Assembly (NCBI GenBank): GCA_017964405.1
Contig: JAGCSA010000028.1
Span: 2,282-66,281 of the forward strand
Direction: 5' to 3'
From: Bacilli bacterium
Lineage (GTDB): Bacteria; Bacillota_I; Bacilli_A; RF39; UBA660
DNA length: 64,000 bases
Each line of letters opens with the position of its first letter. Position 1 is the stretch's first letter. The position numbers and the translations under genes were made by a program. This document shows positions 3,759 through 54,191 of the stretch, in pieces. The notes below the pieces were generated by a model. That model saw only the letters and a list, made by a program, of their open reading frames with translations. It did not search any database and was not told the origin of the DNA.

Positions 3759-3783
3759 ATAAAAAAAGCTCTAAGAGCTTTTT
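3759..3783 (-). terminator. Rho-independent terminator after second acetate kinase
   Basis: aaagctct-aag-agagcttt hairpin plus T-run immediately 3' of the stop codon. Confidence 0.5.
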
Positions 3784-4981
3784 ATTTTTCACATACTAAT
3801 TGATAAGTATCACGAATAATCATAATTTCTTCATTCGTTGGAATAACATAAACAGGAATAGAAGATTTCTTTGTAGTAATCATTCCTTCATGAATCTCTT
3901 TAAATCCAGCAATCTTATCATTAATCTTCTTATCTACTTCAATACCAATTGGTTTTAATTTCGTAAGAATTGCTTCTCTTGTTTCACTACCATTTTCAAG
4001 GACACCAGCTGTCATAACCATAGCATCTACTTTACCGTCTAATTCAATATAGTATTCTGCAATAAAACGATTAATAATATCAACATACATATCCAAAGCA
4101 AGTTTTGCTCTTTCATCTCCAGCAGCAATTGCTTTTTCTACATCACGATTATCATTAAATCCACAGATACCTAATAAACCACTCTTCTTATTTAAATCAT
4201 TGGTAATTTCAGAAACATCTTTTCCTGTTTCTTTACAAACATATTCAATGATAGAAGGATCGATAGAACCACATCTAGTACCCATCATTAATCCATCTAA
4301 TGGGGTAAGACCCATCGTAGTATCATAACATTTACCATCTTTAATACAACTAATAGATGCTCCACTACCTACATGGCAAATAATTAAGTTTACTTTTTCT
4401 TTTCCAAGCATCTTCTTCATAGTCTCTGTAATATATTTATGACTCGTTCCATGGAATCCATATTTACGTACTCCGTACTTCTCATACCATTCATAAGGAA
4501 CTGGATACATATAATTAACAGGAGGCATTGTTTGATGGAATGCTGTATCAAATACTGCTACATTAGGAACTCCTGGTAAAGCTTTCTGCATTGCTTCAAT
4601 ACCAGCAAGATTTCCAGGATGATGAAGAGGTCCTAATTTAGTTAGATCTTTAATATCTTGTACAACTGTATCATCAATTAATACAGAATCACTATATTTT
4701 TCTCCTCCATGTAGAACTCTATGTCCTACTCCTTTAATTTCATCTAAACTCTTCACTGCTTTATGTTTTAAGATTTCCTCTAACATAACATCAACAGCTT
4801 CTGTATGATTCTTTAAATACTTTTCTCCTTTAATTTTTTCTCCATTGATTTTCGTATTCCAAAAAGAATCAGGAAAACCAATTTTTTCAATATAACCACT
4901 TATTAATACTTTCTCCTCAGGCATTTCAAATAATTGAAATTTTAAAGAACTACTACCTGCATTAACACATAAAAATTTCAT
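3782..4981 (-). CDS. Acetate/propionate kinase paralog
   Basis: MKFLCVNAGSSSLKFQLFEM; full-length ASKHA kinase clearly paralogous to 1503-2687. Confidence 0.85.
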   Translation of the reverse strand: MKFLCVNAGSSSLKFQLFEMPEEKVLISGYIEKIGFPDSFWNTKINGEKIKGEKYLKNHTEAVDVMLEEILKHKAVKSLDEIKGVGHRVLHGGEKYSDSVLIDDTVVQDIKDLTKLGPLHHPGNLAGIEAMQKALPGVPNVAVFDTAFHQTMPPVNYMYPVPYEWYEKYGVRKYGFHGTSHKYITETMKKMLGKEKVNLIICHVGSGASISCIKDGKCYDTTMGLTPLDGLMMGTRCGSIDPSIIEYVCKETGKDVSEITNDLNKKSGLLGICGFNDNRDVEKAIAAGDERAKLALDMYVDIINRFIAEYYIELDGKVDAMVMTAGVLENGSETREAILTKLKPIGIEVDKKINDKIAGFKEIHEGMITTKKSSIPVYVIPTNEEIMIIRDTYQLVCEK

Positions 4982-5070
4982 ACACACATCTCCTTTTCAT
5001 AACACACTTAAAGTACCAAAGAAACCTAAAAAAGTCAATAAAATCCAAGGATTTCTCTCATCAATTTTCT

Positions 5071-18082: not shown

Positions 18083-19411
18083 ATGCTAAAGTTAAAGAAC
18101 ATAGAAAAAGAAAAATTTGATGAATTTGTTCGTAACCATAAGACCAAATCTCATTTTCTACAATCTCTTTCTTGGGGAGAGTTTTCCAGAGTAAAAAAGA
18201 ATCTAACTCCCTATTACATGGGATTAGTAAATGACGAAGATGAAATCGTCGCAGCAACTCTACTCTTAGAAAAACATCTTCCAATGAATAAATGTTATTT
18301 CTATGCCCCTCGTGGATTTGTACTAGATTATAAAAAGAAAGAAATCGTACGAGAGATGACAAAGAGAGTAAAAGAATTTGCGAAAAGTAAAAAAGCAATC
18401 TTTGTAAAAATAGATCCGGATATTATCAGAAAATCAACCAATTATCAAAATGAAAAAACAGAAAATCCTGATTATAATGAGATCTTCCAAACTCTAAAAT
18501 CTTGTGGTTTTAAACATCAAGGATATACAAAAAACTTTGAGACAATGCAACCAAGATATACCTTCCGAGTAGATTTAACACAAAGTATGGAAGATATAGA
18601 AGAACACTTTTCGAAAACAACCAAACAAAGAATTGCAAAAGCACAAAAACTAGATACAGAAGTCATGATAGGAGACAAAAGTGACATCAAAGAGTTCTAT
18701 CATCTAATGACACTAACAGAATCTAGAAAAGATTTTATATCCTATAACGAAGATTATTATGAAACATTATATGAAATCTTTAATGGAAATGAATCTACAA
18801 AAGCTACTCTATTCTTAGGAAAAATCAATATCACAAAGACAATCAAAGCATTAGAAAACAATTTAAAAACAGTGAATAATCAAATCTCTATATTACCAAT
18901 TGATAATTTAAGTAAAAGTGCCAAAGCAAAATTAACAGAATTAACCAAGCAAAAAGAAAATATTCAAGCAGAAATTGATAAATATGGAGAAGCGAAAAAA
19001 GAATATGGAAATGAAATTACATTAAGTGCTCATATGATTATTGAATATGGAAACAAAGCATGGGTTTTATATGCAGGAAATCATAATATTTTAAGTGAAA
19101 CCTATGTAAACTATAGTACATATTATGAACACATGAAGTATTGTAAAGAAAAAGGAATTGAAATATATGATCAATTCGGTACCATTGGAGATCTATCCAA
19201 AAATAATCCACGTTTAGGATTACATGAATTTAAAAAGAAATTTGGAGGAGACTACATTGAATTCATGGGAGAATGGGATTTAATTACAGATCCTCTCTTC
19301 TACTTTGTATTTACTAAACTAGTCCCAATTTACCGAAAAATCATTAGAAAACAAAGTAAGAAAAAACTAGAAGAAGAACTAAATCAAGACAAAGAAAAAG
19401 AGATCGAATGA
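18083..19411 (+). CDS. FemAB-family peptidoglycan cross-bridge aminoacyltransferase
   Basis: FemAB/MurM fold with central coiled-coil insertion (NLKTVNNQ...QKENIQAEIDKYGEAKK). Confidence 0.75.
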   Translation: MLKLKNIEKEKFDEFVRNHKTKSHFLQSLSWGEFSRVKKNLTPYYMGLVNDEDEIVAATLLLEKHLPMNKCYFYAPRGFVLDYKKKEIVREMTKRVKEFAKSKKAIFVKIDPDIIRKSTNYQNEKTENPDYNEIFQTLKSCGFKHQGYTKNFETMQPRYTFRVDLTQSMEDIEEHFSKTTKQRIAKAQKLDTEVMIGDKSDIKEFYHLMTLTESRKDFISYNEDYYETLYEIFNGNESTKATLFLGKINITKTIKALENNLKTVNNQISILPIDNLSKSAKAKLTELTKQKENIQAEIDKYGEAKKEYGNEITLSAHMIIEYGNKAWVLYAGNHNILSETYVNYSTYYEHMKYCKEKGIEIYDQFGTIGDLSKNNPRLGLHEFKKKFGGDYIEFMGEWDLITDPLFYFVFTKLVPIYRKIIRKQSKKKLEEELNQDKEKEIE

Positions 19412-19425
19412 TCTCTTTTTTTCGA

Positions 19426-19716
19426 TTAAATATTTCCAGCAGCAGCAGCATCTGCTTGTTGGTTTCTACCAGTAACTTCATAGATATGATTTCTCATAGT
19501 AACAACATCTTGGTAGAAAGGCTCAAATTGACTTTTAACGTGAGCTAAATACTCAGCATTAACATCCTCTGATCCTCTACTTTCCCAGTGAGTACCATGT
19601 AACATTCTCATAAGTCCATCGATATCATCGAAAACATCATGAATACGGGTAGCACTATTATAAATATTATCGGCTAAGCTAATAGCACGATCATAATCAG
19701 CTTCTTGAAATTCCAT
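19426..19716 (-). CDS. Small helical WXG-like protein, last gene of the WXG cluster
   Basis: 96 aa, HWESRGSE turn; Ala-rich C-terminus. Confidence 0.4.
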   Translation of the reverse strand: MEFQEADYDRAISLADNIYNSATRIHDVFDDIDGLMRMLHGTHWESRGSEDVNAEYLAHVKSQFEPFYQDVVTMRNHIYEVTGRNQQADAAAAGNI

Positions 19717-19736
19717 TCAAATTCACCTCCAAATAA

Positions 19737-20036
19737 TTAGAATAGATGACTTCCAGCAGATGCTAGATCATCCTCATTATCACTCAATATTTTTGCAGAA
19801 GTAACAATATTTTCTCCTCTTTGAGTAAGTCTTTGCTTAAAGTCCATTAATTCAGCAGTTTTTCCTTCGAAAGAACCCTTGTATGCAGTAGCAGCAGGAC
19901 CATTCCAAATACTTAATAATTCATGAGTATTTGATTCTAATTTGTGAATTTCTCCTAAAAAATCTTCTGAACTATCAATGGTGCTTTTTCCATCTTGACT
20001 CATTCCACCAGCTTGTACAATTAAACCATCAGACAT
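19737..20036 (-). CDS. WXG100 (ESAT-6-like) family protein
   Basis: 99 aa; LSIWNGPAATAY W-x-G turn. Confidence 0.7.
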   Translation of the reverse strand: MSDGLIVQAGGMSQDGKSTIDSSEDFLGEIHKLESNTHELLSIWNGPAATAYKGSFEGKTAELMDFKQRLTQRGENIVTSAKILSDNEDDLASAGSHLF

Positions 20037-20122
20037 AATTTCTAACCTCCATTCTTAACTAAATTATATCATCAAAACCAAAAATGCAATATAAACTATT
20101 GTAAATATGACATTTTTTTACA

Positions 20123-20410
20123 CTATATTGAAATAGCAGCAAGTTGATCATCTAGTTCTTGAATCTGTTGAGCAGAGCTTTTAACAAACTCTCCAAAATC
20201 ATTCATTTCTTGTGCTTCTACAGTAGCAGCAGCTGTTTGTGTATTACAGGTTGTCATGAAAGAAGATTTGGCATCTCCATTCCATCCACTTAAATCAGAT
20301 TCAATATTAGATGCATACGTTGTAGTAGCAGTCTTTAAATCACTAGCAGCTGAAATCATCTTGTCTCCTGCCGCACTTACTTGACCAAAATCACAAACAA
20401 ATTTCGCCAT
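20123..20410 (-). CDS. WXG100 (ESAT-6-like) family protein
   Basis: 95 aa; LSGWNGDAKSSF W-x-G turn; ELDDQLAA C-terminus. Confidence 0.7.
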   Translation of the reverse strand: MAKFVCDFGQVSAAGDKMISAASDLKTATTTYASNIESDLSGWNGDAKSSFMTTCNTQTAAATVEAQEMNDFGEFVKSSAQQIQELDDQLAAISI

Positions 20411-20411
20411 A

Positions 20412-21851
20412 TTATACCTCCACAGCCGTAGTAGGCTTTGTTTCAGGTTGTCCCGTGGTTGGAGTTGTCTCAGGTGTTGTCTCCTCTGCTATCTTTACAT
20501 GAGGAGCCTCAGGTGCTTTTACCTTCTCAGAAGGTTTATCTTTTCCAACATAACGTAGAACACCATCCCAATTCTTATTGGAATAATTTGTAATACTAAT
20601 CTCATTACCACCAGAATCACCATCATGTCCATCTTGATTTCCGTGAGCTCCGATCATCTTACCATTTCCGTAATACATTTCTGTATGAGTACCTTCATGT
20701 AGTAAGACATCTCCTGGTTGTAACTTATTAACATCTGGAGTACCAGGAATCCATTCAAATCCTGCTTTTACAAATGCATTCTTCATATTACCGGTATAAC
20801 TAGCACCGGTTTCTTTTACCTTAATACCAGATGCTTCGTAAGCAGAGATAACAAAGGAAGAACAATCGTAATTTGGATTACCCCAACGAGTTTCTTGAGA
20901 ATATCCATGGGTATTATCATTGGCAGTTGCCGTTGCCCAATCAAGAGCAGAAGTAACATAAGCACCCACTGTATAAGTACGATCAGAACCTAAGTTCTGG
21001 ATCTTCGTAACATAATCTCCAATTTTTTCTTGGAAGTTACCTTCTCCATCTTTCTTCCAATCATCATTAACAAAGAATTTAACTTGATCCCCACATTTCT
21101 CATCAATTTGACCAATAATACACTTGAATTTTTGGCCATCTTTTAAGGTGAATTCAATCACATCTCCTACACTACCGTATACCTTAGCACAAGAGATAAT
21201 GAACATTCCACCAATTGTAGCATAACCAGCTTTATTATATTCTAAATCTTCATGTTCAAATAGCTTCTTACCAAGAGATGTGAGAGCATCTTTTGATACT
21301 TTATCATGAAGAATTCCCTTAACTTCTGTTTTAATATCAACTGGTTCCTTTGCAGGAGTTGTTTCAGGTGCAGTTGTCGTAGGAGCTTCCGTACTAGGAG
21401 TCGTAACAATTGGAGTATAGCCTCCACCTCCACCGGTAGAACCTCCGCCGCCACCACTATAAGTGCCGCCACTTCCACCAGTTGGATTACTGCCACCTTT
21501 ATTGTTATTATTACCGGTTGGATCACCAGGATTTTTTTGCTTTTCTTGCTCTTTTGCTTTCGCAGCATCCTCTGCTGCTTTTTCAGCAGAAGATTGGAAT
21601 TTTAAACTATTTTGTAAAGCTGTATGAGAAGATACAACCGTATTTAATACATTCGATGTATTTTTAATCTTTGTCACACAGGCTTCTATATTACTAGCAA
21701 TCACAGCTTTCGGAGAAGCAAAATCAAAATCTTCACAACTAGTATCATATCCACTAACAGAACTAGAAATACTAGAAACTTTCGATGCAAGTGCATCAAG
21801 AGAAGAAGCTCCTGCTGTAACAGCATCTGTTTCAATCATAAAAATTGACAT
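20412..21851 (-). CDS. LXG/WXG-like N-terminal domain fused via Gly-rich linker to NlpC/P60 peptidoglycan endopeptidase
   Basis: N-terminal ~100-aa helical domain; G/S/T-rich linker; NlpC/P60 core YDCSSFVISAY...HTEMYYGNG; Pro/Thr-rich tail. Confidence 0.7.
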   Translation of the reverse strand: MSIFMIETDAVTAGASSLDALASKVSSISSSVSGYDTSCEDFDFASPKAVIASNIEACVTKIKNTSNVLNTVVSSHTALQNSLKFQSSAEKAAEDAAKAKEQEKQKNPGDPTGNNNNKGGSNPTGGSGGTYSGGGGGSTGGGGGYTPIVTTPSTEAPTTTAPETTPAKEPVDIKTEVKGILHDKVSKDALTSLGKKLFEHEDLEYNKAGYATIGGMFIISCAKVYGSVGDVIEFTLKDGQKFKCIIGQIDEKCGDQVKFFVNDDWKKDGEGNFQEKIGDYVTKIQNLGSDRTYTVGAYVTSALDWATATANDNTHGYSQETRWGNPNYDCSSFVISAYEASGIKVKETGASYTGNMKNAFVKAGFEWIPGTPDVNKLQPGDVLLHEGTHTEMYYGNGKMIGAHGNQDGHDGDSGGNEISITNYSNKNWDGVLRYVGKDKPSEKVKAPEAPHVKIAEETTPETTPTTGQPETKPTTAVEV

Positions 21852-21869
21852 ATGATTCCTCCATTCTTA

Positions 21870-22775
21870 TTATGCTTTTTGAGCATCATAACCAACATAT
21901 CGTAATACCCCATCCCAAGGGAAATTAACATATTTAGATACATTGATTTCTTTTCCACTAGAGTCTCCATTTCGACCATCTTTGTCACCATGGGCTCCAA
22001 CATTCATACCATCTCCGATATACATCTCGGTATGATGATTCTCACTTAATAAAACATCTCCTGGCTGTAAATCATCCATTTTCGGATTACCAGGAATCCA
22101 TTCAAATCCAGCTTTCGTAAAAGCAGATCTCATATTTCCGGTATAACCGGCTCCTGCTTCTTTTACTTGAATACCTGCTGCCTCATAGGCAGAAATAACA
22201 AGAGAAGAACAGTCATAATTTGGATTTCCCCAACGAGTTTTTTGAGAATATCCATGGGAATTATCTGCTGCAACAGCAACAGCCCAATCAATCGCACCCT
22301 GTACAACAGACCCAACATTGGTTGCTGCTTTTGCAATCGTCTCTCCTGTTGCTAAATTCGTAGTAGCAATTGCAGTCGCTTCTAGCTTTGTTCCAGAAGC
22401 AGATGCTAAATTACTTTCAATTTGACTTTTTAAAGAAGCTAATTCATTTTGATAACGACTGACATCTGCAGAATACTTACTAGCAGCAGCAGTATCGTTA
22501 TTCGAAACAGCCTGATTATAATTCCCCTGAGAAATCGAAACATTTTGCTTACAAGTTTTATATTGTTCATACAAATCACAAGCAGTTGCAAAAGATTCCA
22601 TCTGTCCTTTAATCGCACTTAAGAATTCAGATGTAAACTGTTCGGCTTTTGAATGAAAACTATCATAACTACTTCCTTGCCAAGAACCACTTAATCCACT
22701 CACCGTAGAATCGTAATTGGAAGAGTAAGAAGCAAGATTCCCAGAATCAGATCTAACTTGTCCACCACTAACCAT
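21870..22775 (-). CDS. WXG-domain::NlpC/P60 peptidoglycan endopeptidase fusion
   Basis: N-terminal LSGSWQGSSYDSF W-x-G turn; C-terminal NlpC/P60 YDCSSLVISAY...HTEMYIGDG, ~70% identical to the domain of 20412-21851. Confidence 0.7.
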   Translation of the reverse strand: MVSGGQVRSDSGNLASYSSNYDSTVSGLSGSWQGSSYDSFHSKAEQFTSEFLSAIKGQMESFATACDLYEQYKTCKQNVSISQGNYNQAVSNNDTAAASKYSADVSRYQNELASLKSQIESNLASASGTKLEATAIATTNLATGETIAKAATNVGSVVQGAIDWAVAVAADNSHGYSQKTRWGNPNYDCSSLVISAYEAAGIQVKEAGAGYTGNMRSAFTKAGFEWIPGNPKMDDLQPGDVLLSENHHTEMYIGDGMNVGAHGDKDGRNGDSSGKEINVSKYVNFPWDGVLRYVGYDAQKA

Positions 22776-22865
22776 AAGTCCTCCTATGATATCCTATAAT
22801 ATAATTCTAGCATTTCTACCACATAATAACAAATTATTTTGTAGTTTTTTAAAGCAATTGACACT

Positions 22866-24518
22866 TTATTTTCTAAGGAGAATCCGAGAAATACTCTGAA
22901 AGAAATGATCTCCAAAAATAGACTTAGTAAGATGAGATTGCCATGCATAAAGAAAATACACAACAGAACCCATCAAAGCATAGAAGAGAATAATAAGGAA
23001 ATTCATCATTCTCACATTTGAATAAACCGGTACAAGGAATCGAATAAGTACTAATACAAAAATCATAAGGAGACTTCCACATAGTACATCAATAAAATTC
23101 TTTAATAGATTTTCAAAAGATACTTCATACTTTCGATTTAATAAAATCATACATAGTAAGAAAGAAACTCCATATCCTAGAATCGTCGCCGTAATAAATC
23201 CATAATAAGGAGGTAATCCAATCGAAGTAAAGGTTCTAAGTAAACTCATATTGAAAATGATTTTAATCAAGATTCCAACAAGTAAACAAATGAATACATC
23301 CTTATAATCTTTTAAAGTTTGTAAAGTCGTAATAACCGTTGTAAATAAAGAAACAACAAAACCTACAAAAATATAATAAGATAACACACTAGCTCCGTAA
23401 GTACTATCTCCATAGAATAATCCCCATACAGCCTTAGACAAGAAACAAATCCCAAATGTCATGGGAACAATAAAATACAAAAGCATACTAAGAGACAAAT
23501 TAATCTTTTGATTCAATTCACTCTTATCCTTCTTCACAAGACTCTCTGTTAAATTAGGAATTAAACTGACAATAATTCCGGTGGATACAGCTGCAATAAT
23601 CATATTAAATTTCTGGGCCCATGTAGAAAAAATACTATAGACCGTTTCTGCATCTACTGCAGAATAATTGGCATATGTAACTAGTCCTTTTACGACACTG
23701 ACCATATCAACATAATTGTACATAGATTTAAAGAAATCAATCATAATAAAAGGAATCGCATAAACAACAATCTTTTTTAAAATGACTTTATCGGAAACCA
23801 AAGGTTCATTCTTATCTCTAACTTTTTCTTGAAATTTACTTCTATTTTTTAAATATTTTTCTAATAAATAAAAGTAAGAAATAAAAGCACCTACGGTTGC
23901 TCCAAAAAGAGCAACTCCTACTACATTGGATAATGATAAATGAAAGACTTTTAGAGTAATCAAACTTCCGAAAATAATAATCAGAACTCGAAATAATTGT
24001 TCTAATACTTGAGAAATAGAGGGAGGGCTCATAATACGATGTCCTTCAAAATAACCACGATAAACACTTAATAAAGGCCCAATTAAAATAGCAGAAGCAA
24101 TGATACGTATAACGAGAGTAACATCTTCTACACTATTTCCTCCTACAACATCTCCTAATATACTTTTCGCAAGGATTGGTGCAAATAATACCACTAATAA
24201 GAAACAAATAAAGCCCATTAAAACAGAAAGCCATTTTCCTAAAACAAAAGCTCTCTTCTTTGCTTTAATATAACCAAGAGTTTGATATTCCGAAACAATT
24301 TTACTAATCGCTAAAGGAATACCTGCTGAAGATAAGGACAAGAAAAACAAATAGATCGTATAAGCATATCCATATAAAGCTCCTCCTTCATCTCCAATAA
24401 TAGAATGAAAAGGAATAACATATAAAATACCCATGATTTTCGTCAAAATAATGCCGACAGTTGTAATAACAGCACCTTTTACAAAGGTATTTTTTCGCAT
24501 AGTAATATCCTTCTTCAT
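22866..24518 (-). CDS. MOP-superfamily polysaccharide/lipid-II flippase (SpoVB/YtgP/MurJ-like)
   Basis: About 14 TM segments; KGAVITTVGIILTKIMGILYVIPF N-terminal signature. Confidence 0.7.
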   Translation of the reverse strand: MKKDITMRKNTFVKGAVITTVGIILTKIMGILYVIPFHSIIGDEGGALYGYAYTIYLFFLSLSSAGIPLAISKIVSEYQTLGYIKAKKRAFVLGKWLSVLMGFICFLLVVLFAPILAKSILGDVVGGNSVEDVTLVIRIIASAILIGPLLSVYRGYFEGHRIMSPPSISQVLEQLFRVLIIIFGSLITLKVFHLSLSNVVGVALFGATVGAFISYFYLLEKYLKNRSKFQEKVRDKNEPLVSDKVILKKIVVYAIPFIMIDFFKSMYNYVDMVSVVKGLVTYANYSAVDAETVYSIFSTWAQKFNMIIAAVSTGIIVSLIPNLTESLVKKDKSELNQKINLSLSMLLYFIVPMTFGICFLSKAVWGLFYGDSTYGASVLSYYIFVGFVVSLFTTVITTLQTLKDYKDVFICLLVGILIKIIFNMSLLRTFTSIGLPPYYGFITATILGYGVSFLLCMILLNRKYEVSFENLLKNFIDVLCGSLLMIFVLVLIRFLVPVYSNVRMMNFLIILFYALMGSVVYFLYAWQSHLTKSIFGDHFFQSISRILLRK

Positions 24519-24582
24519 AGTACCCTCCATTATAGTAATATCATAGCACAAAAAAACAAAAGGATAAACACTATCCTTTTGT

Positions 24583-25551
24583 TTAATAACCTCTTCCCCC
24601 TCTTGGATATTGAGCCATCTTATCTAAACAACTCATATTGTAAAAAATACTATCTTGAATTCTTCTCAAATTAAATAGAAGCCAATCATCCCAAGCATCT
24701 GAACGATTACGAATAACTAGATTCGTAACTTTTTGACGATAATCATCTCGATAAGCAGCATATTGTCTAGATCCATAGACAACTGGTAGTGGTAAATCTA
24801 AGAAGAGAGAATCATTGGCAAATTGATAAAGCATAGCACTCTGAAATAATCTTCCATATCGAGTATTTCCATCTTGAAATAATTGAAGAGCTGCTAACAA
24901 CCCATGACAAATCATAGGAAGAATCATGACATCATACCCGTCATTGGGTCTAACTCCACTATTGATAAAACCAAGGAATTTATCCATAGCCGTATCAATC
25001 TCCGTATGACGAAGAGGAAAATAACAAATCTCACGATTTTCAAAAAAATACTTTGTTCTAGGCTCTCCATAATAGTAAGATCCCACAAACTTCAAATCAT
25101 CTTCTCGAATTCCTTGTTTATTCTGAGAACTCGTACCCTGTAATAACACATCATGCATATAAATAAATTCCTCTTTCGTAATAGGATCTCCATTTTTAAT
25201 TTTCTCAAGTAATAAATCAATGGATACCTCATCTTCAAAATGACGACTTAAAGCAATTAAGAAAGAATCTTCTTTTTCAATCGATTGATTATCAATAATA
25301 TCCGAATCCTTTAATGTCTTCAAAAAAGTAGCTTGATCTTCCTCAGAGAATTCTCTTAATTTGTTCACATATTCTAGATACAAGTCTTTTGTATATTCTA
25401 TTTCTCCTTTGACTCTCTCACTAGGAGTATATTGATCTAAAACATCAAAAATCGATAACGTAGCAATAGGAGCCCCTGCATCAATTAACTTTTCAACTTG
25501 TGTTTGAGCAATTCTCTTTTCTTCTTCAAACGTCATAGCATCACCACCCAT
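24583..25551 (-). CDS. Fic/Fido-fold protein with degenerate active-site motif
   Basis: ALQLFQDGNTRYGR aligns to HPFx(D/E)GNGRxxR but His is replaced by Gln and the second Gly by Thr. Confidence 0.5.
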   Translation of the reverse strand: MGGDAMTFEEEKRIAQTQVEKLIDAGAPIATLSIFDVLDQYTPSERVKGEIEYTKDLYLEYVNKLREFSEEDQATFLKTLKDSDIIDNQSIEKEDSFLIALSRHFEDEVSIDLLLEKIKNGDPITKEEFIYMHDVLLQGTSSQNKQGIREDDLKFVGSYYYGEPRTKYFFENREICYFPLRHTEIDTAMDKFLGFINSGVRPNDGYDVMILPMICHGLLAALQLFQDGNTRYGRLFQSAMLYQFANDSLFLDLPLPVVYGSRQYAAYRDDYRQKVTNLVIRNRSDAWDDWLLFNLRRIQDSIFYNMSCLDKMAQYPRGGRGY

Positions 25552-38067: not shown

Positions 38068-39471
38068 ATGAAAAAAAAGATCATTTTCTTAATCACACTA
38101 TTGACAATTATCTTAGTAGGAAAGACAGTCCATGCAGAAGAATATACATTCTATGAAGCAGAATATCTAGATAAAATGTATATGAACAAGTATGAGTATG
38201 CAACAAACACTATCTATTATCAGAGAGCAAGACTCTTTCGAAATAGTCAAACGAAAGAAATTGCATATTGTATGGAACCATTACGGTTCTTCCAAGAAGG
38301 AAGTATCTATACGAGAACCAATGCTCCTAGTACTCTATCAGAAGAAAAGCTAAATCGAATCAAAAAGATTGCTTACTTCGGATGGAGATATAAAGATCAT
38401 TATGATGCATCCTGGTATGCTGTCGCACAAATGATGATTTGGAGAGAATCGAGTTCTGATATTGGAGACTACTACTTCACAGATACCTTAAATGGTCAAA
38501 GAACAAATGCTTTTGATTATCAAATGGATGAAATCAATCAATTAATCGAATCTTATGATCGAGAAATTCCAGTCGAGAATCAAACCATTACTCTAGTGGA
38601 AGGAATGACAAAAGAAATATCGATAGGAGATACTCTCGATTTTTATACAACTGATAATTCAGAAGTCACATTAGAAAATGGAGTAATCAAAATTCATCCA
38701 TTAGAAGAAGGAGAATACACGATTACCCTTCATAGAATCCAAGAAATCGTACATGGAATGCCTATGGAGATTTATGAATCAGAAACGAGTCAAAATATGA
38801 TTCAAAGAGGAGATTTAGATCCTAAAGAAGTCTCTTTTAAAATAAAAGTCATCCAAAACCATATAGAGATTCATAAAACAGATGAAGAAACAGATACTCC
38901 CCAGGGAGATGCTAGTCTAGATGGAGCTCTATTCGAATTATACGATGAAGAAGGAAATCTATATGATACGATTGAAATCATCCAGCAAACTGGAATTCTT
39001 ACTAGTATCCCATTCGGAACTTATACATTAAAAGAAGTGTCTCCAGGAATCGGATATGAATTAAACAAACAAGAATATACATTTACTCTTTCAGAAGAAA
39101 ATCCAAACTATGAAACAACCATCTCCAACAAGGTAATCAAAAAGAAAATCATCCTTGAAAAAACCTATGGAGAAGAAAACAAACCAGAAGAAAAAATAGA
39201 TTTTCAAATCTGGAAACAAGAAGAATTACTAGATACCATTACAACCGATGAAGAAGGAAAAGCAGAAATCATTCTACCCTATGGGATCTATATCATCAAA
39301 CAAGCCAATACAACAGAAGGATATGCTTTATTAGAACCATTCACCATCATCATAGAGAACTCTGAAGAAGAAATAATTTCCTTACATGACTTCAAAATAC
39401 CAGTACCAGATACATCATCTATCAGTATTCTTCAATATATTCTTCATACAATTGTGATGATTCTATGTTAA
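38068..39471 (+). CDS. Surface adhesin: thioester domain + two CnaB/prealbumin-fold domains + non-canonical sorting signal
   Basis: Signal peptide; AYCMEP thioester-type Cys motif; two FELYDEEGNL...GTYTLKEV / KAEIILPYGIYIIKQ CnaB-like units; C-terminal IPVPDTSS + hydrophobic tail. Confidence 0.55.
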   Translation: MKKKIIFLITLLTIILVGKTVHAEEYTFYEAEYLDKMYMNKYEYATNTIYYQRARLFRNSQTKEIAYCMEPLRFFQEGSIYTRTNAPSTLSEEKLNRIKKIAYFGWRYKDHYDASWYAVAQMMIWRESSSDIGDYYFTDTLNGQRTNAFDYQMDEINQLIESYDREIPVENQTITLVEGMTKEISIGDTLDFYTTDNSEVTLENGVIKIHPLEEGEYTITLHRIQEIVHGMPMEIYESETSQNMIQRGDLDPKEVSFKIKVIQNHIEIHKTDEETDTPQGDASLDGALFELYDEEGNLYDTIEIIQQTGILTSIPFGTYTLKEVSPGIGYELNKQEYTFTLSEENPNYETTISNKVIKKKIILEKTYGEENKPEEKIDFQIWKQEELLDTITTDEEGKAEIILPYGIYIIKQANTTEGYALLEPFTIIIENSEEEIISLHDFKIPVPDTSSISILQYILHTIVMILC

Positions 39472-40019
39472 AGAAAGTATTTTCCTTACTCTGTATCGGA
39501 ATGATGCTAGTAACAATCACAACCATCATGAAAATCAGTACAGAAGAAGCAATCATTCACACGATTCCCATACAATATCCAGAAAAAATAGCGAAAACAA
39601 AAACAATCCAAGTAGAACAACCAATCGGAAGAATTATCATTCCTAAGATTCAAATCAATCAATCGTTATATGATATCAATAGTCCCAAAAACAACATAGA
39701 AGAAAACATAACTATTCTAAAAGAATCTACTTTTCCAGATCAAGAAAACAGTCTCTTATTCATTGCAGCTCATTCTGGAAATACAAAAGTAGCTTTCTTT
39801 CAAAATCTTGATCAATTACAAATAGGAGATGAGATTCAGATACTCTATCAAAATCAAGAATACGAGTACAACATCATTGATATCTACGAACAAGAAAAAA
39901 ATGGCTATATCAGTGGAATGAGGCAAAAAACAAAAAGACAACTCATCTTAACAACGTGTTGTCCCAATAAAGATAATTGTCAATTAATCATTAATAGTAT
40001 AGAAAAAGAGTCTCATTAA
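39465..40019 (+). CDS. Sortase family transpeptidase
   Basis: N-terminal anchor; LFIAAHSG His region; LILTTCCP (TLxTC active site). Confidence 0.65.
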   Translation: MLKKVFSLLCIGMMLVTITTIMKISTEEAIIHTIPIQYPEKIAKTKTIQVEQPIGRIIIPKIQINQSLYDINSPKNNIEENITILKESTFPDQENSLLFIAAHSGNTKVAFFQNLDQLQIGDEIQILYQNQEYEYNIIDIYEQEKNGYISGMRQKTKRQLILTTCCPNKDNCQLIINSIEKESH

Positions 40020-44233: not shown

Positions 44234-46516
44234 TTAATTTTTCTTAAATGCTCTTCTAGTTCTCTCTTCTTTTGTTTTAATTTTAACAGCCTGATTAATC
44301 GCATCGGAATCTCGAAATTGAGTCTCATGGATTTTTTCAATAACCGTTAAATCCACTTTCTTTGTTTCCTTAGAGGCACTTTTTACACATAATCGCAAAC
44401 GATCTCCAAGATAATAGTTTTGTTCCCCATCTAAAGAAACCAAAGAATAACTTTCTTCACTATAAACATAATCTCCCTTTAAATCCCATACACGTACAGT
44501 AGCTTCTGCTAGGTTATCAAATTGTACAACCATACATTCATTGGAAAGACCGATAACCGTTGCTTCACACTCTTCTCCAATATGATGAGACATCATATCA
44601 GCAAACTGCATACGGAATACTTCTTGCTCTAAATCATCTGCCACTTTTTCCGTATGAGTCACTCTCTCTGCAATCTCAGGAAGTCTAGAAATCCATTTTT
44701 TTCTTTGAACCAATCCTGGATCTGGTCGAAAGACACAGTCCCAAGAAATATCCTGATTAATTTTATCACCATATCTTCTAGCTGGAGATGTTCCCTGCAT
44801 GTATTCATCTTCTGCCAATCCATTATGTCCCACATTCACTTCACTATATTTGGCACGTGATTGTGTCTTGATTAATTCTGTTAATAAGAAACTTGATAAT
44901 CTTCCACAATTAGAAACATGAGAAATAAGTTTTTGGAAAGCAGCATGATTGGATGCTAATTCTTCTGCATCATATCCATGAAAAGGAAGACCAATGGCAT
45001 CCAACATTTCTAAATACTTCTTTAATTTATCAACATTTGGTGCTTCATGAACACGATAAAGACATGGAATACCATGTTTCTGAAAGAATTTAGCTCTGGT
45101 AACATTAGCAATTAACATAAATTCTTCAATAATGTTTTCCGCAACATCTTGTGTACGAACACCAATATCTAACATATGACCATTCGGTCCATAAATACCA
45201 CTCGGTTCAGGTCGATTAAATTCATAAGCTCCGGCAGCCATTCTCTTATCATGCAGAATTTTAGCCAAATCTCTCATAACCTGTAGTGTTTGTTCATAAG
45301 ATTGATATTCTGTAGGAATATCTCCCCCTTTTAAGATTTGATTCACGGTATCATAATTCATTTTTAATTTAGAACGAGTAACAGTAGGAACATAACGGTA
45401 ATTTACTACTTTTCCTTCTGGAGTAATCTCTAAAATATCTGATATTGTCAAACGATCTTTATCTTGATTTAAAGAACCAATTTGATTGGCAATTTTACGA
45501 GGATAATTAGGAAGTACAATTCCACCAGGATAATAACTATTACCTTTACGGAATCCATCTCGATCAAGAGGAGATCCATAAGGAACTAAAGAACTAATAT
45601 CAATAATATCTACTTCTAAAACATAGTTTCCTCTTTCATTCTTATAACAACTAATGGCATCATCCATATCTTTTGTCGTAATACCATCTAAAGTAATCGT
45701 TTCATTTTGGGTACGATCTTCTCTTCCAATACGATCAACATCTCTTACTTCATCGATAATATGCTCTAGTTGTTCTAAAGATTCATTACTAAATTCATTA
45801 TCTACCCCTAATTTAAATGCTTCCCATAGAATATCTTCATTGGGATCATCTTTATGGTTAAATACTCTTACAATAGAAGCCGTATAAAAATTGGGAGCTG
45901 TTTGTTCCTCTAAAGAAACAGCAACTCTTTGTCCCTCAATCGCTTCCCCTTTTAAAGCAATGGTAATGGATTGTTTTTTCTTATCAATAGGACGTACAAA
46001 ATAACTAGAACCAATACAATAAACTTCTCCTGGAATATATTCTAGATTTCGATCTAAGACCTTAACAACCTTAATACCCTGAGTACCACCAATATCAATT
46101 AATACAAAATCTCCATCAATAGCACCATTCGTATTTTCTTTATGAACTTCATACTTTTCATTATTAACAACTAATTGACCATCCCGATCTACATAAGAGG
46201 TTGTAACAGATACTTTTCCACGACCATCTCGATTTCCATAAAATCTACCTTTTCGAAAAGAAGTTTTGGAAAAAGCAATATAATTCTCATTCGGAGTCAT
46301 ATAGATCTCATATTGAGTTACCCCTTCTCGAATCAGTTCCAATAATTCTTTCTTTTCTTCTGCCGTTAAAATAACATCGCTATGCAATTCTTCTGATTTC
46401 AACTTTTCAATTCTAGAAACAATTTTTTCAAAAGAAGCAGCCTTCTTTTCCTTTTTTAATGCTAGTTCTAGATAATGTTTCATTCCACTCATCCCCCAAT
46501 ACGTATACCTTAACAC
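44234..46516 (-). CDS. RNB-domain exoribonuclease (RNase II/R family paralog)
   Basis: ITLDGITTKDMDDAIS RNB motif; cold-shock/S1-like flanks. Confidence 0.75.
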   Translation of the reverse strand: MLRYTYWGMSGMKHYLELALKKEKKAASFEKIVSRIEKLKSEELHSDVILTAEEKKELLELIREGVTQYEIYMTPNENYIAFSKTSFRKGRFYGNRDGRGKVSVTTSYVDRDGQLVVNNEKYEVHKENTNGAIDGDFVLIDIGGTQGIKVVKVLDRNLEYIPGEVYCIGSSYFVRPIDKKKQSITIALKGEAIEGQRVAVSLEEQTAPNFYTASIVRVFNHKDDPNEDILWEAFKLGVDNEFSNESLEQLEHIIDEVRDVDRIGREDRTQNETITLDGITTKDMDDAISCYKNERGNYVLEVDIIDISSLVPYGSPLDRDGFRKGNSYYPGGIVLPNYPRKIANQIGSLNQDKDRLTISDILEITPEGKVVNYRYVPTVTRSKLKMNYDTVNQILKGGDIPTEYQSYEQTLQVMRDLAKILHDKRMAAGAYEFNRPEPSGIYGPNGHMLDIGVRTQDVAENIIEEFMLIANVTRAKFFQKHGIPCLYRVHEAPNVDKLKKYLEMLDAIGLPFHGYDAEELASNHAAFQKLISHVSNCGRLSSFLLTELIKTQSRAKYSEVNVGHNGLAEDEYMQGTSPARRYGDKINQDISWDCVFRPDPGLVQRKKWISRLPEIAERVTHTEKVADDLEQEVFRMQFADMMSHHIGEECEATVIGLSNECMVVQFDNLAEATVRVWDLKGDYVYSEESYSLVSLDGEQNYYLGDRLRLCVKSASKETKKVDLTVIEKIHETQFRDSDAINQAVKIKTKEERTRRAFKKN

Positions 46517-46551: not shown

Positions 46552-47571
46552 CTAAGAAATTCTTCTAACGGTAAGAATATGTGTACCAGATCCATTTAAC
46601 CAATAATTAACATCACTGACGATAACACCGGTACCATAATTAGCTGCATGAATCATCTGTCCATTACCAACATATAAAGCAGAATGGGTCGGATTTCCAT
46701 CCGAATAACCCCATATCAGAATATCTCCTGGTTGAGCCTCTGCATAGCTAACTCCATATCCTACATATTGTTGAGAATAAGAACTTCTACTAATAGAAAT
46801 GCCCATACAAGAATAGACATAAGATACAAATCCACTACAATCAAATCCATATGGACCTGCAGAATTCGCCATATATGGCATTCCAAGTAACGAATAAGCA
46901 ATGGAAACAACATCATTTCCTTGTGGATTCGCTGGGGCTCCATAATGAACAGGATAATAGACAGGAACTGGTTTTTCCTCTACTTCTAACTGATACGTTA
47001 AAGTAGCTTTATTACCAGAACCATCAACAGCTGTAATCGTAATTTGATGAGTTCCAACACTACTAATATCTCCATCAGAAGATAATGCATAGTATTTCAA
47101 ACTATCAGCAGGAGCATTTTCCAAAAACTCCAAATCCCCATCAATCGCATCATTAACAGATGCAATATTCTCTTTGAGATCATAGTCATCTCCCTCTGTA
47201 ATGGATACAGATTCATTCTTTAAAGAAATAATAGGAGATACCGTATCTACAACCGATATCACAACGGGTACATCTTTCACCATATTATCTTTTTTAACTT
47301 CTAGAATAACCTCTTGTGGTCCAAGAACACTGGTATCAAGATCCTGTTTTACAGAAACGATTTCACCATCAACCTCTTTTATCAATTTTTTGATATCATA
47401 ATTAGCAGTACCATATTCAACAGATGCAGTCTTTTTCACAACGACCTTAATACTTTGAAAAGTAGTGTAATTACGATATGCACAACAACTGATTATCATT
47501 ACGAATGATAACACCAACAATAAGAAGACGCGAATAACCTTCTTTATCGACGGTCTATCAAGACTTTTCAT
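46552..47571 (-). CDS. Membrane-anchored NlpC/P60 (C40) cell-wall endopeptidase with Ig-like domains
   Basis: YGFDCSGFVSYVY...HSALYVGNG...H catalytic triad region. Confidence 0.8.
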   Translation of the reverse strand: MKSLDRPSIKKVIRVFLLLVLSFVMIISCCAYRNYTTFQSIKVVVKKTASVEYGTANYDIKKLIKEVDGEIVSVKQDLDTSVLGPQEVILEVKKDNMVKDVPVVISVVDTVSPIISLKNESVSITEGDDYDLKENIASVNDAIDGDLEFLENAPADSLKYYALSSDGDISSVGTHQITITAVDGSGNKATLTYQLEVEEKPVPVYYPVHYGAPANPQGNDVVSIAYSLLGMPYMANSAGPYGFDCSGFVSYVYSCMGISISRSSYSQQYVGYGVSYAEAQPGDILIWGYSDGNPTHSALYVGNGQMIHAANYGTGVIVSDVNYWLNGSGTHILTVRRIS

Positions 47572-47744
47572 AAATAAAATCCTCCCTGATAAGTGATTAT
47601 TCTAACATAGGGAAAAATAGAAGTCAAAGAAGAAACCTATAAGAATATCTTATATTGTCTGGAAAGAAAGCAATAGCAACAAAAAAAGATGATTATAAAA
47701 ATCATCATTTTTTTAAATCTCATATACAAGTAATCTTATAAAAC

Positions 47745-48128
47745 TTAGCTGATATAATTGAAGTTTGTTCCAACACCAGTACCACCACTAGAAGGAGCAG
47801 CACTTGCAGTTGAACCAGATCCAAGACTTTCAGCAGCAGCTCTTAAAGCAGCTTCCTCTTCATCATATGCACTACAAATATTAGCAATACTACTAATAAA
47901 ATTTGCATGTGTTGAACCAAAATCAGTAAACATTTGATCTACTGTTTCGAAAGCAGCAAAATAAGTATCAGCTCCGGAACTAATCCAAGAACCTTTAAGA
48001 GTTGCAGCTTCATTACGAATCTGTGTAAATAGAGAATCTACTTCCGCATAAATATTGTTTATTTCTGTAGCTACTTGACCAACTGAATCTGTTTCTACAT
48101 CAATATTATTATCACCAATAAATGTCAT
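47745..48128 (-). CDS. ESAT-6/WXG100-like small protein
   Basis: 127 aa helical; LKGSWISSGADTYFAAFE turn; Ser/Gly-rich tail. Confidence 0.5.
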   Translation of the reverse strand: MTFIGDNNIDVETDSVGQVATEINNIYAEVDSLFTQIRNEAATLKGSWISSGADTYFAAFETVDQMFTDFGSTHANFISSIANICSAYDEEEAALRAAAESLGSGSTASAAPSSGGTGVGTNFNYIS

Positions 48129-48142
48129 CCGAAATCACTTCC

Positions 48143-48433
48143 CTATACCATTTTAGATAAAGCATCACTTAAAGCTTTATCAAATCCAGATGCTCTATCA
48201 CTTACAAATTTAGCATGTTTCTCTAATTCTGTATTGATTTTCTTTGCATCTGCACTAAAAGAATTATACTTTGTAACTAATGCTTGTCCAGCTTTATCTT
48301 TCCAAGAAGATGTTACTGAACTCATCTTAGTATCCATTTCAACAATTTTAGGTCCAAGTTCTCCAACTAAGCTCGTAATCTTAGCAGCATAACCAGCTGC
48401 CGCAGCAGTATCTACTTGTAAAGAAGAACCCAT
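48143..48433 (-). CDS. ESAT-6/WXG100-like small protein
   Basis: 96 aa; SSWKDKAGQA turn. Confidence 0.5.
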   Translation of the reverse strand: MGSSLQVDTAAAAGYAAKITSLVGELGPKIVEMDTKMSSVTSSWKDKAGQALVTKYNSFSADAKKINTELEKHAKFVSDRASGFDKALSDALSKMV

Positions 48434-48499
48434 ATAATCACTTCCTATACTTAGCTTAATTTAAAAAGAGCACATTGAATAATGTGCTGATTTTTTATA

Positions 48500-48892
48500 T
48501 TACATTACAGCTGCTGAGCTAACACCTGCACCAGTGCCACCGCCGCCACCAACTGATCCTACAGAAGATGGGCTGTGAGCTTGAATTACTCTTAGTAATT
48601 CTGCTTCCTCAGCATCGTATTCATTAGCAACTTTAGATAAAGCAGCAGCTAAATCTGTTAATGAAGCAGATACTGTATTGAATGCAGTCTTGTCAATTTC
48701 AACAAGATTAGTCTTTAAAGCACCACCAACAGCAGTACCTTCTCCACCACATGCAGCTACAGCATCATTACCAGCTTTGTTAACTGTATCAATTACTTGA
48801 CTAATTGTATTTAACTCAGTCGTTATAGTGGTAGCAGCGTCTACCAACGTACTGGTTTCTACATCAATTGCATTGTCTCCAACGAATGCCAT
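48500..48892 (-). CDS. ESAT-6-like small protein, paralog of 47745-48128
   Basis: Shares MxF(V/I)GDNxIDVET N-terminus and YDAEEAxLR motif with 47745-48128; Gly-rich tail. Confidence 0.5.
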   Translation of the reverse strand: MAFVGDNAIDVETSTLVDAATTITTELNTISQVIDTVNKAGNDAVAACGGEGTAVGGALKTNLVEIDKTAFNTVSASLTDLAAALSKVANEYDAEEAELLRVIQAHSPSSVGSVGGGGGTGAGVSSAAVM

Positions 48893-48930
48893 TAAAAATC
48901 ACTCCTTTATAATTATTATTTCTTTTTTTA

Positions 48931-49224
48931 TTAGTATAATTTTTGAACGTTCGTTCTTACTGTTTGTTGAGTAGCAGCAGCTTTAGATGCCATCTCATTT
49001 AATAGTTTTCTGTTAAGAGCTAAATTTGTTTCAATCTTCTCAAATTCAGTATTAGCAGCAGTAGCAACTTCCGTCCAATCAGAACCACCTTTATCGTTCC
49101 ATAGAGGGGAATCCATAGCAGTTTTAATTTTTGCTCTTGATGTAGCATAAGTAGTACATGCTGAATTGTATGTACCAGCTGCAGCAATCAATCCACTATT
49201 ATCAATTTGGAAAGCCATATCTAT
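48931..49224 (-). CDS. WXG100 (ESAT-6-like) family protein
   Basis: About 97 aa from MAFQIDNSGLIAAAG; PLWNDKGGSDW turn; resembles 20123-20410. Confidence 0.55.
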   Translation of the reverse strand: MDMAFQIDNSGLIAAAGTYNSACTTYATSRAKIKTAMDSPLWNDKGGSDWTEVATAANTEFEKIETNLALNRKLLNEMASKAAATQQTVRTNVQKLY

Positions 49225-49322
49225 CATACCTCCTATTCTCATTATAGCATAACAATCCATTTTGTCAAAAATAATCTACATTATTTTCAGCCTTACTTTA
49301 CACCGAACTGTCCCTTATTTTT

Positions 49323-53808: not shown

Positions 53809-54191
53809 TGGTGGAGATGAGGAGAATCGAACTCCTGTCCGAAAATAGAGCTACATAAACCTCTACAAGCTTAGTTAACTAATTAATTTCGCATAATAAC
53901 CAAGTAGTTAACGACCAAGTTACTATACTAGTCTTAAAATTCTTTCTATCCTATAGACGTAGGATAGCTATAACCTATCAAAATGATCCTCGAAAGGGCT
54001 CCTAGGTGAGAACCCTTAAGAAGAGCTAGCCTTATTTATTCTATTAGGCAAAAGCAACAGCTTGGTTTGCGCCAAACAATGTTACTATAGCATTTTTAAT
54101 TTTATTTGCATTTATTTTTTTTCGCCCGTGACGTGGACATTCCGACTTGCCATCTATGCTCTCTTATTCCCGTCGAAACCAAGTCATCCCC
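53809..54191 (-). ncRNA. ssrA: tmRNA (SsrA)
   Basis: 5' GGGGAUGACUUGGUUUCGACGGG and 3' GGACAGGAGUUCGAUUCUCCUCAUCUCCACCA; internal tag ORF ANKIKNAIVTLFGANQAVAFA-stop; directly downstream of smpB. Confidence 0.85.

Follow-up and report, generated by a model that had tools for sequence, protein, structure and literature searches.

How might peptidoglycan hydrolases that carry no conventional export signal reach the cell wall, and what would small WXG100 proteins have to do with it? These questions are raised by a five-gene operon in a 64,000-nucleotide stretch of DNA (the window) from an uncultured rumen or gut metagenome-assembled genome (MAG) labelled 'Bacilli bacterium' (proteins MBP5678782-819, locus tag J6X28). 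At 19426-22775, five open reading frames (ORFs) of 301, 479, 95, 99 and 96 aa, here called hyd1, hyd2, w95, w99 and w96, stand in series on the minus strand, as an earlier reading made from the letters alone (the sequence-only reading) had described them. That reading took hyd1 and hyd2 for type VII-style secretion substrates with wall-hydrolase cargo. Our analysis agrees on three grounds: hyd1 and hyd2 have no Sec signal, the head of hyd1 has a WXG100 match and a PPE-like fold, and an essC gene lies beside the orthologous operon in two relatives. We regard it as highly likely that the hydrolases are type VII substrates. The whole explanation, in which a type VII secretion system (T7SS) exports peptidoglycan hydrolases with WXG100 proteins as partners, we consider probable, with less assurance.

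Predicted endopeptidases without signal peptides

Both hyd1 and hyd2 match the Pfam families NLPC_P60 (PF00877; 27.8 and 30.6 bits, cut-off 23) and ELLD (PF25309; 57.1 and 55.6 bits, cut-off 27), in agreement with the NlpC/P60 domains that had been read in the first two genes. Across 65 homologues of hyd1, the residues M1-V2-S3, W32-x-G34, C189 and H262 are invariant, and H248 is kept in at least 90%. We predict that hyd1 is an NlpC/P60 (C40) peptidoglycan endopeptidase with Cys189, His248 and His262 as its catalytic residues. In tblastn searches its catalytic domain was 38-45% identical to phage tail lysins. For hyd2, an AlphaFold 2 (AF2) model places three helices in the head (8-33, 45-83 and 88-104) at moderate confidence (predicted local distance difference test, pLDDT, ~75), and behind them a disordered linker rich in Gly, Pro and Thr. 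Next come a beta domain modelled with confidence (pLDDT >90), the NlpC/P60 domain and a Pro/Thr-rich tail. With Foldseek, this beta domain weakly matches, among others, the p97 N-domain, kiwellin and expansin (E ~0.1-0.3); we take these three to be double-psi beta-barrel folds, and from these weak matches the domain is predicted to be a double-psi beta-barrel. The top Foldseek match overall was the Diffocin baseplate protein 8v3w_H (E 1.2e-5).

Neither protein appears to have a Sec or Tat signal peptide. Within their first 45 residues, Kyte-Doolittle hydropathy averaged over 15 residues peaks at -0.07 in hyd1 and at 1.04 in hyd2. For comparison, the window also encodes a Sec-type NlpC/P60 protein, which reaches 3.0, and a lipoprotein, which reaches 2.6. 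An in-frame stop lies just 5' of each of the five starts in the operon, which rules out an N-terminal extension for all five ORFs, and it is the low N-terminal hydropathy together with these stops that speaks against a signal peptide. The cleavable Sec signals that the sequence-only reading had named as evidence against its proposal were thus not found.

A WXG-type head on hyd1 and three small proteins

Scanned alone, the head of hyd1 reaches the WXG100 profile with 27.7 bits (cut-off 27.3) and matches T7SS_signal (PF21725) at E 1.9e-4; 9 of 16 orthologous hyd1 heads match WXG100. A profile built from hyd1-type heads and compared with the PDB had ESAT-6-like and EsxA chains as its top matches, which were weak (E ~0.03). 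In the AF2 model of hyd1 (mean pLDDT 89), helices span residues 4-30, 35-91 and 95-128. The SWQG motif lies at the turn between the first two, and a low-confidence linker separates the helical head from the NlpC/P60 domain. Foldseek matched the modelled head to PPE41, PPE15 and PPE4, which are type VII substrates, with probabilities of 0.9-0.99.

The last three genes had been read as WXG100 proteins, and profile searches support this. Against PF06013 (cut-off 27.3), w99 scores 28.4 bits, above the cut-off, while w95 (25.1 bits, E 2e-5) and w96 (18.9 bits, E 1.9e-3) fall below it; TIGR03930 matches w95, w99 and w96 at E 3.6e-5, 6.7e-7 and 1.2e-6, with all scores below its cut-off of 44.85. The W-x-G motif is WQG at residue 32 of hyd1, WNG at residue 43 of w95 and WNG at residue 44 of w99. 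Judged by independent E-values of 1e-5 to 1e-7 on four proteins, recurring in the orthologues of ~16 species, the WXG100 matches on hyd1, w95, w99 and w96 are well beyond chance. Orthologues of w95 were found at ~14 loci. Among the profiles that the sequence-only reading had put forward, WXG100 and NLPC_P60 thus matched; LXG (PF04740), DUF3130 and DUF3958 matched none of the five, even with E-values as high as 1 allowed.

The head family and its cargo

A phmmer search with the 130-aa head of hyd1 against 1.84 billion representative proteins returned only 161 matches, which almost always began at residue 1; the domain is thus rare. We counted cargo as Pfam domains among 94 full-length head matches, with counts that overlap where related families fall on single proteins. 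The cargo was NlpC/P60 in 17 proteins, Peptidase_C39_2 in 12, CHAP in 11, Peptidase_C39 in 10, M23 and ELLD in 9 each, C70 in 8, M15_4 in 6, S9 or esterase in 5-6, Phage_lysozyme2 in 3, Glucosaminidase in 2 and NAGPA in 1. Nearly all identifiable cargo is therefore a wall-hydrolase-type domain or a papain-like peptidase, and no nuclease, NADase or deaminase was among the 25 commonest cargo families listed. This census indicates that the head is a carrier mainly for wall-hydrolase-type and papain-like domains. Searches of 50,697 phage and 72,556 plasmid records gave no match to the head.

Comparison of the window with its closest relative (L007, 10001-13365) revealed where the operon changes. 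At the amino-acid level, the neighbouring GH31 protein, leucyl-tRNA synthetase (LeuRS), FemAB and MurJ are 95%, 91%, 88% and 75% identical and the catalytic domain of hyd1 is 83% identical, whereas the head of hyd1 is at 38%, w95 at 40%, w96 at 34% and w99 at 29%. The enzyme domain of hyd1 is thus as conserved as the neighbours, and a local hypervariable patch is limited to the presumed targeting module, namely the hyd1 head and the small proteins. This is the opposite of LXG toxins, in which the head is conserved and the toxin part varies. The divergence of head and partners would fit a shared, co-evolving interface; low constraint on helical bundles could give the same pattern.

Synteny and the link to essC

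All relatives discussed here are MAGs or metagenome contigs. In a scan of the GTDB species genomes, full-length relatives of hyd1 were found only in uncultured MAGs, mostly labelled Bacilli, Bacillales or Mollicutes. Without the head, the catalytic domain occurs widely in Clostridia and Erysipelotrichales. The order murJ, hyd1, one to three variable hydrolase genes, w95, w99, w96 and femAB is kept in most of ~16 species-level MAGs, the variable genes encoding helical heads joined to Glucosaminidase, Phage_lysozyme2, or a beta-barrel with or without NlpC/P60. In six assemblies of the species studied here, from different samples, hyd1 is identical. Within the lineage, the operon belongs to the syntenic core and is not an accessory island. 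Of the two explanations that the sequence-only reading had offered for the locus, a remote substrate island or another role for WXG-type domains, we favour the first without taking it as proven, although the word island does not suit a core locus.

Two relatives place the operon beside a type VII gene. In the species-representative MAG L015 and in the metagenome contig L091, a 1542-aa ORF lies 95-135 bp past the end of the orthologous operon, whose hyd1 is 55-58% identical. The ORF contains a forkhead-associated (FHA) domain and two FtsK_SpoIIIE stretches, and its score with the EssC model TIGR03928 is 955 bits against an equivalog cut-off of 778. The EssC proteins of L091 and L015 are 90% identical, and 3' of both genes a ~92-aa ORF is followed by six ~100-aa ORFs, some with W-x-G. 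At L093, L178 and L184 the same essC block lies in unrelated housekeeping contexts and the hydrolase operon is not beside it; contiguous and separated arrangements therefore both occur in the lineage.

The essC loci themselves (L015 13882-20831, L091 4523-11530 and L093 9998-17000, with further ones at L178 and L184) comprise essC, an overlapping ORF of 84-93 aa that is YukD-sized and has no Pfam match, five or six helical ORFs of ~100 aa, and an ORF of ~153 aa. No EsaA, EssA or EssB is recognisable within 6-10 kb of them. The locus could be a reduced variant of the type VIIb system (T7SSb); text descriptions of the T7SSc-j classes of Garrett et al. allow no assignment.

Operon layout, flanking genes and further clusters

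The positions of the operon's features and immediate flanks are collected in Table 1. The gaps between the genes, earlier put at 1-21 bp, are indeed 18 bp (hyd1-hyd2), 1 bp (hyd2-w95) and 20 bp (w99-w96), but w95 and w99 are 86 bp apart, and this gap is maintained at 70-87 bp across relatives. The G+C content of the operon is 0.37 versus ~0.32. Housekeeping and cell-wall genes flank it, with a MurJ-type flippase, a Fic protein and LeuRS on one side and FemAB and TrmB on the other.

Table 1. Positions, in window coordinates, of the operon, its parts and signals, and the flanking genes.
Feature	Position	Strand	Description or basis
hyd1, 301 aa	21870-22775	-	WXG-type three-helix head aa 1-128, flexible linker aa 129-153, predicted NlpC/P60-ELLD endopeptidase aa 154-295
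hyd1 head domain, aa 1-128	22392-22775	-	WXG100 profile, AF2 model, Foldseek
hyd1 catalytic NlpC/P60-ELLD domain	21891-22316	-	Pfam; aligns to NlpC/P60 structure 2hbw
hyd2, 479 aa	20412-21851	-	Head aa 1-104, linker aa 107-166, predicted beta-barrel aa 170-295, NlpC/P60-ELLD aa 297-435, Pro/Thr-rich tail
hyd2 middle beta domain, aa 170-295	20967-21344	-	AF2, Foldseek
w95, 95 aa, WXG100-like, SGWNG	20123-20410	-	Start 1 bp past hyd2 stop
w99, 99 aa, WXG100, SIWNG	19737-20036	-	GGAGGT ribosome-binding site ahead
w96, 96 aa, WXG100-like, HWESRG	19426-19716	-	TIGR03930, PF06013
Two overlapping sigma-70-like promoter matches 5' of hyd1	22804-22852	-	TTAAAA-18-TATTAT and TTGTTA-17-TAGAAT, each with TG before the -10; consensus match only
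Candidate internal promoter in the w95-w99 gap (86 bp)	20063-20089	-	TTGCAT, 15 nt, TGaTATAAT (extended -10); read from the sequence, function putative
Intrinsic-terminator-like hairpin 3' of w96, common to convergent femAB	19395-19420	-	11-bp stem, then T run
MurJ-type lipid II flippase, upstream flank, outside the operon	22866-24551	-	PF03023, PF01943; syntenic in relatives
FemAB-family peptidyltransferase, downstream convergent flank	18083-19411	+	PF02388; 76-89% identical in relatives

The Fic-domain gene (24583-25551) lies between the LeuRS gene and murJ, a position kept in several relatives (e.g. L007 and L180), and is a fast-evolving neighbour of the operon, with less than 35% identity to the relatives' copies or no possible alignment. 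The femAB gene that converges on the operon has a FemAB-family paralogue in the window, at 61566-62816, which adjoins murD and murI; the two are only 24% identical to each other. In L018, L020, L021, L023 and L180, a tandem FemAB pair occupies the first femAB site.

A second WXG100 cluster lies at 46552-51587, also on the minus strand, and shows that the genome carries further type VII-style substrates, which lends support to the presumed presence of essC in this genome. It is headed by a 754-aa protein (49323-51587) with a helical N-terminus and, on inspection by eye, tandem repeats of ~30 aa ('GKMS-E-Y-K-LD-M'); it also has a linker rich in Gly, Pro and Thr, a hydrophobic segment rich in Gly and Ala, and an acidic tail, and no homologue was present in any locus fetched. 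Small proteins of 109, 130, 96 and 127 aa come next, the 96-aa and 127-aa proteins scoring 32.6 and 28.2 bits, above the WXG100 cut-off, and the cluster ends with a 339-aa NlpC/P60 protein (78.8 bits) that has an N-terminal membrane anchor or signal. In a more distant relative, L027 (280-11505), a 2545-aa ORF precedes three ORFs (100, 434 and 134 aa) whose turns resemble W-x-G, a 270-aa NlpC/P60 hydrolase with a helical head and two further ORFs of ~100 aa; this may be a similar but larger cluster of substrates.

Elsewhere in the window, a gene for a surface protein with thioester domain and SpaA fold is followed by a sortase gene (38068-40019), and from these genes we deduce a conventional Gram-positive wall with sortase-anchored proteins. 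A transfer-messenger RNA gene (53809-54191, tag ANKIKNAIVTLFGANQAVAFA) adjoins smpB. There are two RNase R-like (RNB) paralogues, at 44234-46516 and 55915-58026, and two acetate kinase paralogues, at 1503-2687 and 3782-4987.

Evidence that weighs against type VII export

Several observations count against the proposal that the hydrolases are type VII substrates. Some concern the proteins. Most of the WXG100 scores lie near or under the curated cut-offs, and no canonical YxxxD/E or FxxxD export motif was seen when the sequences were read by eye. The sequence-only reading had placed W-x-G helical N-termini on all five proteins; this stands for hyd1, w95 and w99, whereas the turn of w96 has only W-x-x-x-G (HWESRG), and hyd2 departs altogether. 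Its 95-aa head has no W-x-G and no Trp at the turn, which reads SGYDTSCED; it has no WXG100 match in Pfam, and hhalign gave 0.1% probability against the w99 family. A WXG-type identity of the hyd2 head is not demonstrable from these comparisons. Moreover, the best Foldseek match of full-length hyd1 is the Corynebacterium glutamicum hydrolase Cg1735 (E 8.6e-5), which like hyd1 joins a long helical N-terminal part to an NlpC/P60 domain.

Other observations concern the machinery. As the sequence-only reading had noted, the 64-kb window has no recognisable type VII core gene: no member of the EssC, EsaA, EssB and YukD families was found among the window proteins that were scanned or have Pfam matches on record, small ORFs having been scanned only in part, so that a YukD-size gene could still be present. 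The largest ORF of the window is at most 806 aa, and the Pfam annotation is of tRNA synthetases, a Mur ligase, RNase R, a sortase with pilin, CdaA and similar functions. In the longest assembly of this contig (75.7 kb), the 7.3 kb past window position 1 hold only housekeeping genes and no type VII core. No essC gene of this MAG was found, the four EssC matches with accessions falling in other MAGs; EssC proteins P0206, P0162 and P0159 trace to other contigs and samples. A metagenome scan with the EssC of L015 gave 80 loci, none of them on the 695-kb contig of the closest relative (Ga0139310_1000001), a result which, coming from an exact-peptide-pattern scan, is not evidence of absence. P0159 (EssC) and P0065 (hyd1) have neighbouring accessions in one study (ERZ27286995, ERZ27286996 and ERZ27287001), which is suggestive only.

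A model for export and its alternatives

We propose that hyd1 and hyd2 are made in the cytoplasm without Sec signals, each with an N-terminal helical 'shaft' domain. There the heads may pack with w95, w99 and w96 into a helical bundle, which an EssC-type type VII ATPase encoded elsewhere in the genome would recognise and export. This step, including its presumed dependence on EssC, would follow the example of toxins of the LXG or ESAT-6-like type and their Esx/Lap partners. Once across the membrane, the NlpC/P60 domains would cleave the stem peptides of peptidoglycan; the predicted double-psi beta-barrel of hyd2 might bind or cut glycan strands. Whose wall is cut is a close call. We lean slightly towards that of the producer, either for autolysis or to open the wall for type VII traffic, rather than that of rivals, since the operon is a core syntenic locus by murJ and femAB, lacks an immunity gene, and encodes catalytic domains conserved like the neighbours. 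Because no EsaA, EssA or EssB is recognisable within 6-10 kb of essC in this lineage, it would be reasonable for the system to secrete an activity that opens the wall for itself. Tentatively, one might go further and suppose that the type VII system is a dedicated export route for the whole hydrolase set, with the WXG-type head as a 'signal peptide for folded autolysins' and the cell's own secreted enzymes opening the path through the wall, in place of the EsaA conduit and a Sec-delivered hydrolase such as EssH. Mother-cell or spore lytic enzymes, which would need no export, are unlikely given the WXG100 partners.

The most serious competitor, to which we assign a distinctly smaller chance, keeps type VII export and changes the target: the proteins would be bacteriolysins aimed at neighbouring Gram-positives, the producer being shielded by its own wall chemistry, for example by FemAB-built cross-bridges. 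The main role established for T7SSb toxins is antagonism between bacteria (PMC10765036). The ~ten types of cargo domain on one head, mostly wall-hydrolase, resemble the variety of polymorphic effectors, and the middle genes of the operon are swapped among species (NlpC/P60, glucosaminidase, Phage_lysozyme2). The nearest annotated relatives of the catalytic domains are phage tail lysins and the Diffocin baseplate protein, which breach walls from outside. Both the cargo variety and this relationship tell against the producer's own wall as the target. A femAB gene adjoins the operon, and FemAB-family genes act as immunity factors beside lysostaphin and zoocin A. This neighbour, however, is highly conserved (76-89%) and shows no co-variation with the hydrolases, and we rejected it as a cognate immunity factor on those grounds; NlpC/P60 enzymes, besides, usually cut the stem peptide and not the cross-bridge. 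No extra credible ORF that might be an immunity gene is present in the operon or in or beside the orthologous loci examined. The locus is fixed in the core, down to an identical hyd1 in six assemblies, and its conserved catalytic domain and variable head reverse the pattern of LXG toxins.

It is improbable, in our estimate, that type VII secretion is not involved at all and that the heads are regulatory coiled coils of the RipA/Cg1735, RipC, CwlO or PcsB type, which would keep the endopeptidase inactive until it meets a division-site partner, with export by another route or release by lysis. The anatomy invites this comparison, as RipA/Cg1735, RipC and CwlO (and the CHAP enzyme PcsB) likewise have a helical N-terminal domain, a linker and NlpC/P60, Cg1735 is the top full-length structural match, hyd1 has a weak NCBIfam match to RipC (E 4e-6, far under the RipC cut-off), and the neighbouring genes serve cell-wall synthesis. 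Such autolysins, however, leave the cytoplasm by Sec or Tat and are regulated by FtsEX or SteAB, whereas hyd1 and hyd2 lack a signal peptide and no ftsEX-type gene is among the annotated genes of the window. Furthermore, the hyd1 head reaches the WXG100 cut-off with an invariant W-x-G, three WXG100 genes always accompany the hydrolases, and essC is adjacent in L015 and L091.

Far less credible still is a remnant of a prophage, phage-tail-like bacteriocin or conjugative element, in which lysins would have come to lie beside WXG100 genes by chance. The modules do recall such elements: the Pfam labels Amidase_5, ELLD and Phage_lysozyme2, the tblastn matches to phage tail lysins and the slightly raised G+C all point that way, although Gly/Ala/Pro/Thr-rich linkers may explain the last. 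ELLD/NlpC-P60, Phage_lysozyme2 and beta-barrel modules are shared with phage tail lysins, the Diffocin baseplate hydrolase and CwlT of ICEBs1, as is an apparent pairing of glycan-cutting with peptide-cutting modules; CwlT combines a muramidase with NlpC/P60. Those proteins, however, are parts of virions, tailocins or conjugation systems, whereas the modules here are chromosomal and sit on secretion-type heads. Integrase, capsid, tail and transfer genes are all absent, the operon is syntenic between housekeeping genes in most of the ~16 species, and the head is missing from the phage and plasmid collections searched; we rejected a prophage or integrative and conjugative element origin for these reasons.

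Relation to known systems and significance

The proposed type VII substrates are closest in plan to the polymorphic toxins of T7SSb, such as Staphylococcus aureus EsaD with EsxB/C/D and Streptococcus intermedius TelC/TelD with Lap1/Lap2, which likewise have a helical N-terminus, a C-terminal enzyme and no Sec signal (PMC10765036, PMC9600955), two or three co-encoded helix-turn-helix proteins of ~100 aa, and an association with essC, which for this operon is seen in two relatives. They differ from these toxins in that the small partners are downstream rather than upstream, the cargo is a peptidoglycan hydrolase and an immunity gene is absent; unlike LXG toxins, the operon has no LXG, DUF3130 or DUF3958 match, and its head, not its cargo, varies. 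The ESX-4 toxin EatA of Mycobacterium abscessus is similar in being a type VII envelope-polymer enzyme escorted by WXG100 proteins (TapA1), and differs in that it belongs to the type VIIa system (T7SSa), targets arabinogalactan and is a demonstrated antibacterial toxin.

EssH, a T7SSb-dedicated CHAP hydrolase of S. aureus, is likewise a wall hydrolase with a genetic link to a type VII locus, and like it hyd1 and hyd2 might help a type VII system to cross thick peptidoglycan. However, EssH carries a Sec signal peptide, and its description states outright that it is no type VII substrate (PMC13059805), whereas hyd1 and hyd2 have neither a signal peptide nor a CHAP match, and instead carry NlpC/P60 and predicted beta-barrel domains and, in hyd1, a WXG-type head. 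As cargoes of T7SSb, reviews name nucleases, NADases, toxins that depolarise membranes and a lipid II phosphatase (PMC10765036, PMC13492133). A 2026 review of Lactobacillales treats the passage of T7SSb effectors through the thick Gram-positive wall as an open question, and mentions CHAP proteins in some T7SS loci whose functional link is not established (PMC13492133). A 2012 census of polymorphic toxins associated Tox-NlpC/P60 with delivery by type VI secretion systems, Photorhabdus virulence cassettes (PVC) and TcdB/TcaC, not with T7SS (PMC3482391). In the open-access literature on T7SS, WXG100 or LXG together with hydrolases, we found no description of a WXG-headed wall hydrolase. What is probably new here is a coherent class of wall-hydrolase cargo, together with a lineage-specific head family, on a type VII substrate architecture.

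The only characterised hydrolase linked to T7SSb, EssH, travels by Sec, and the head family described here is therefore a concrete, testable candidate for something different: it would be either a Sec-independent route for autolysin export or a new class of type VII bacteriolytic effector. In practical terms, the conserved N-terminal MVSSG...SW(K/Q)G head offers a handle for finding type VII cargo in uncultured gut Bacilli.

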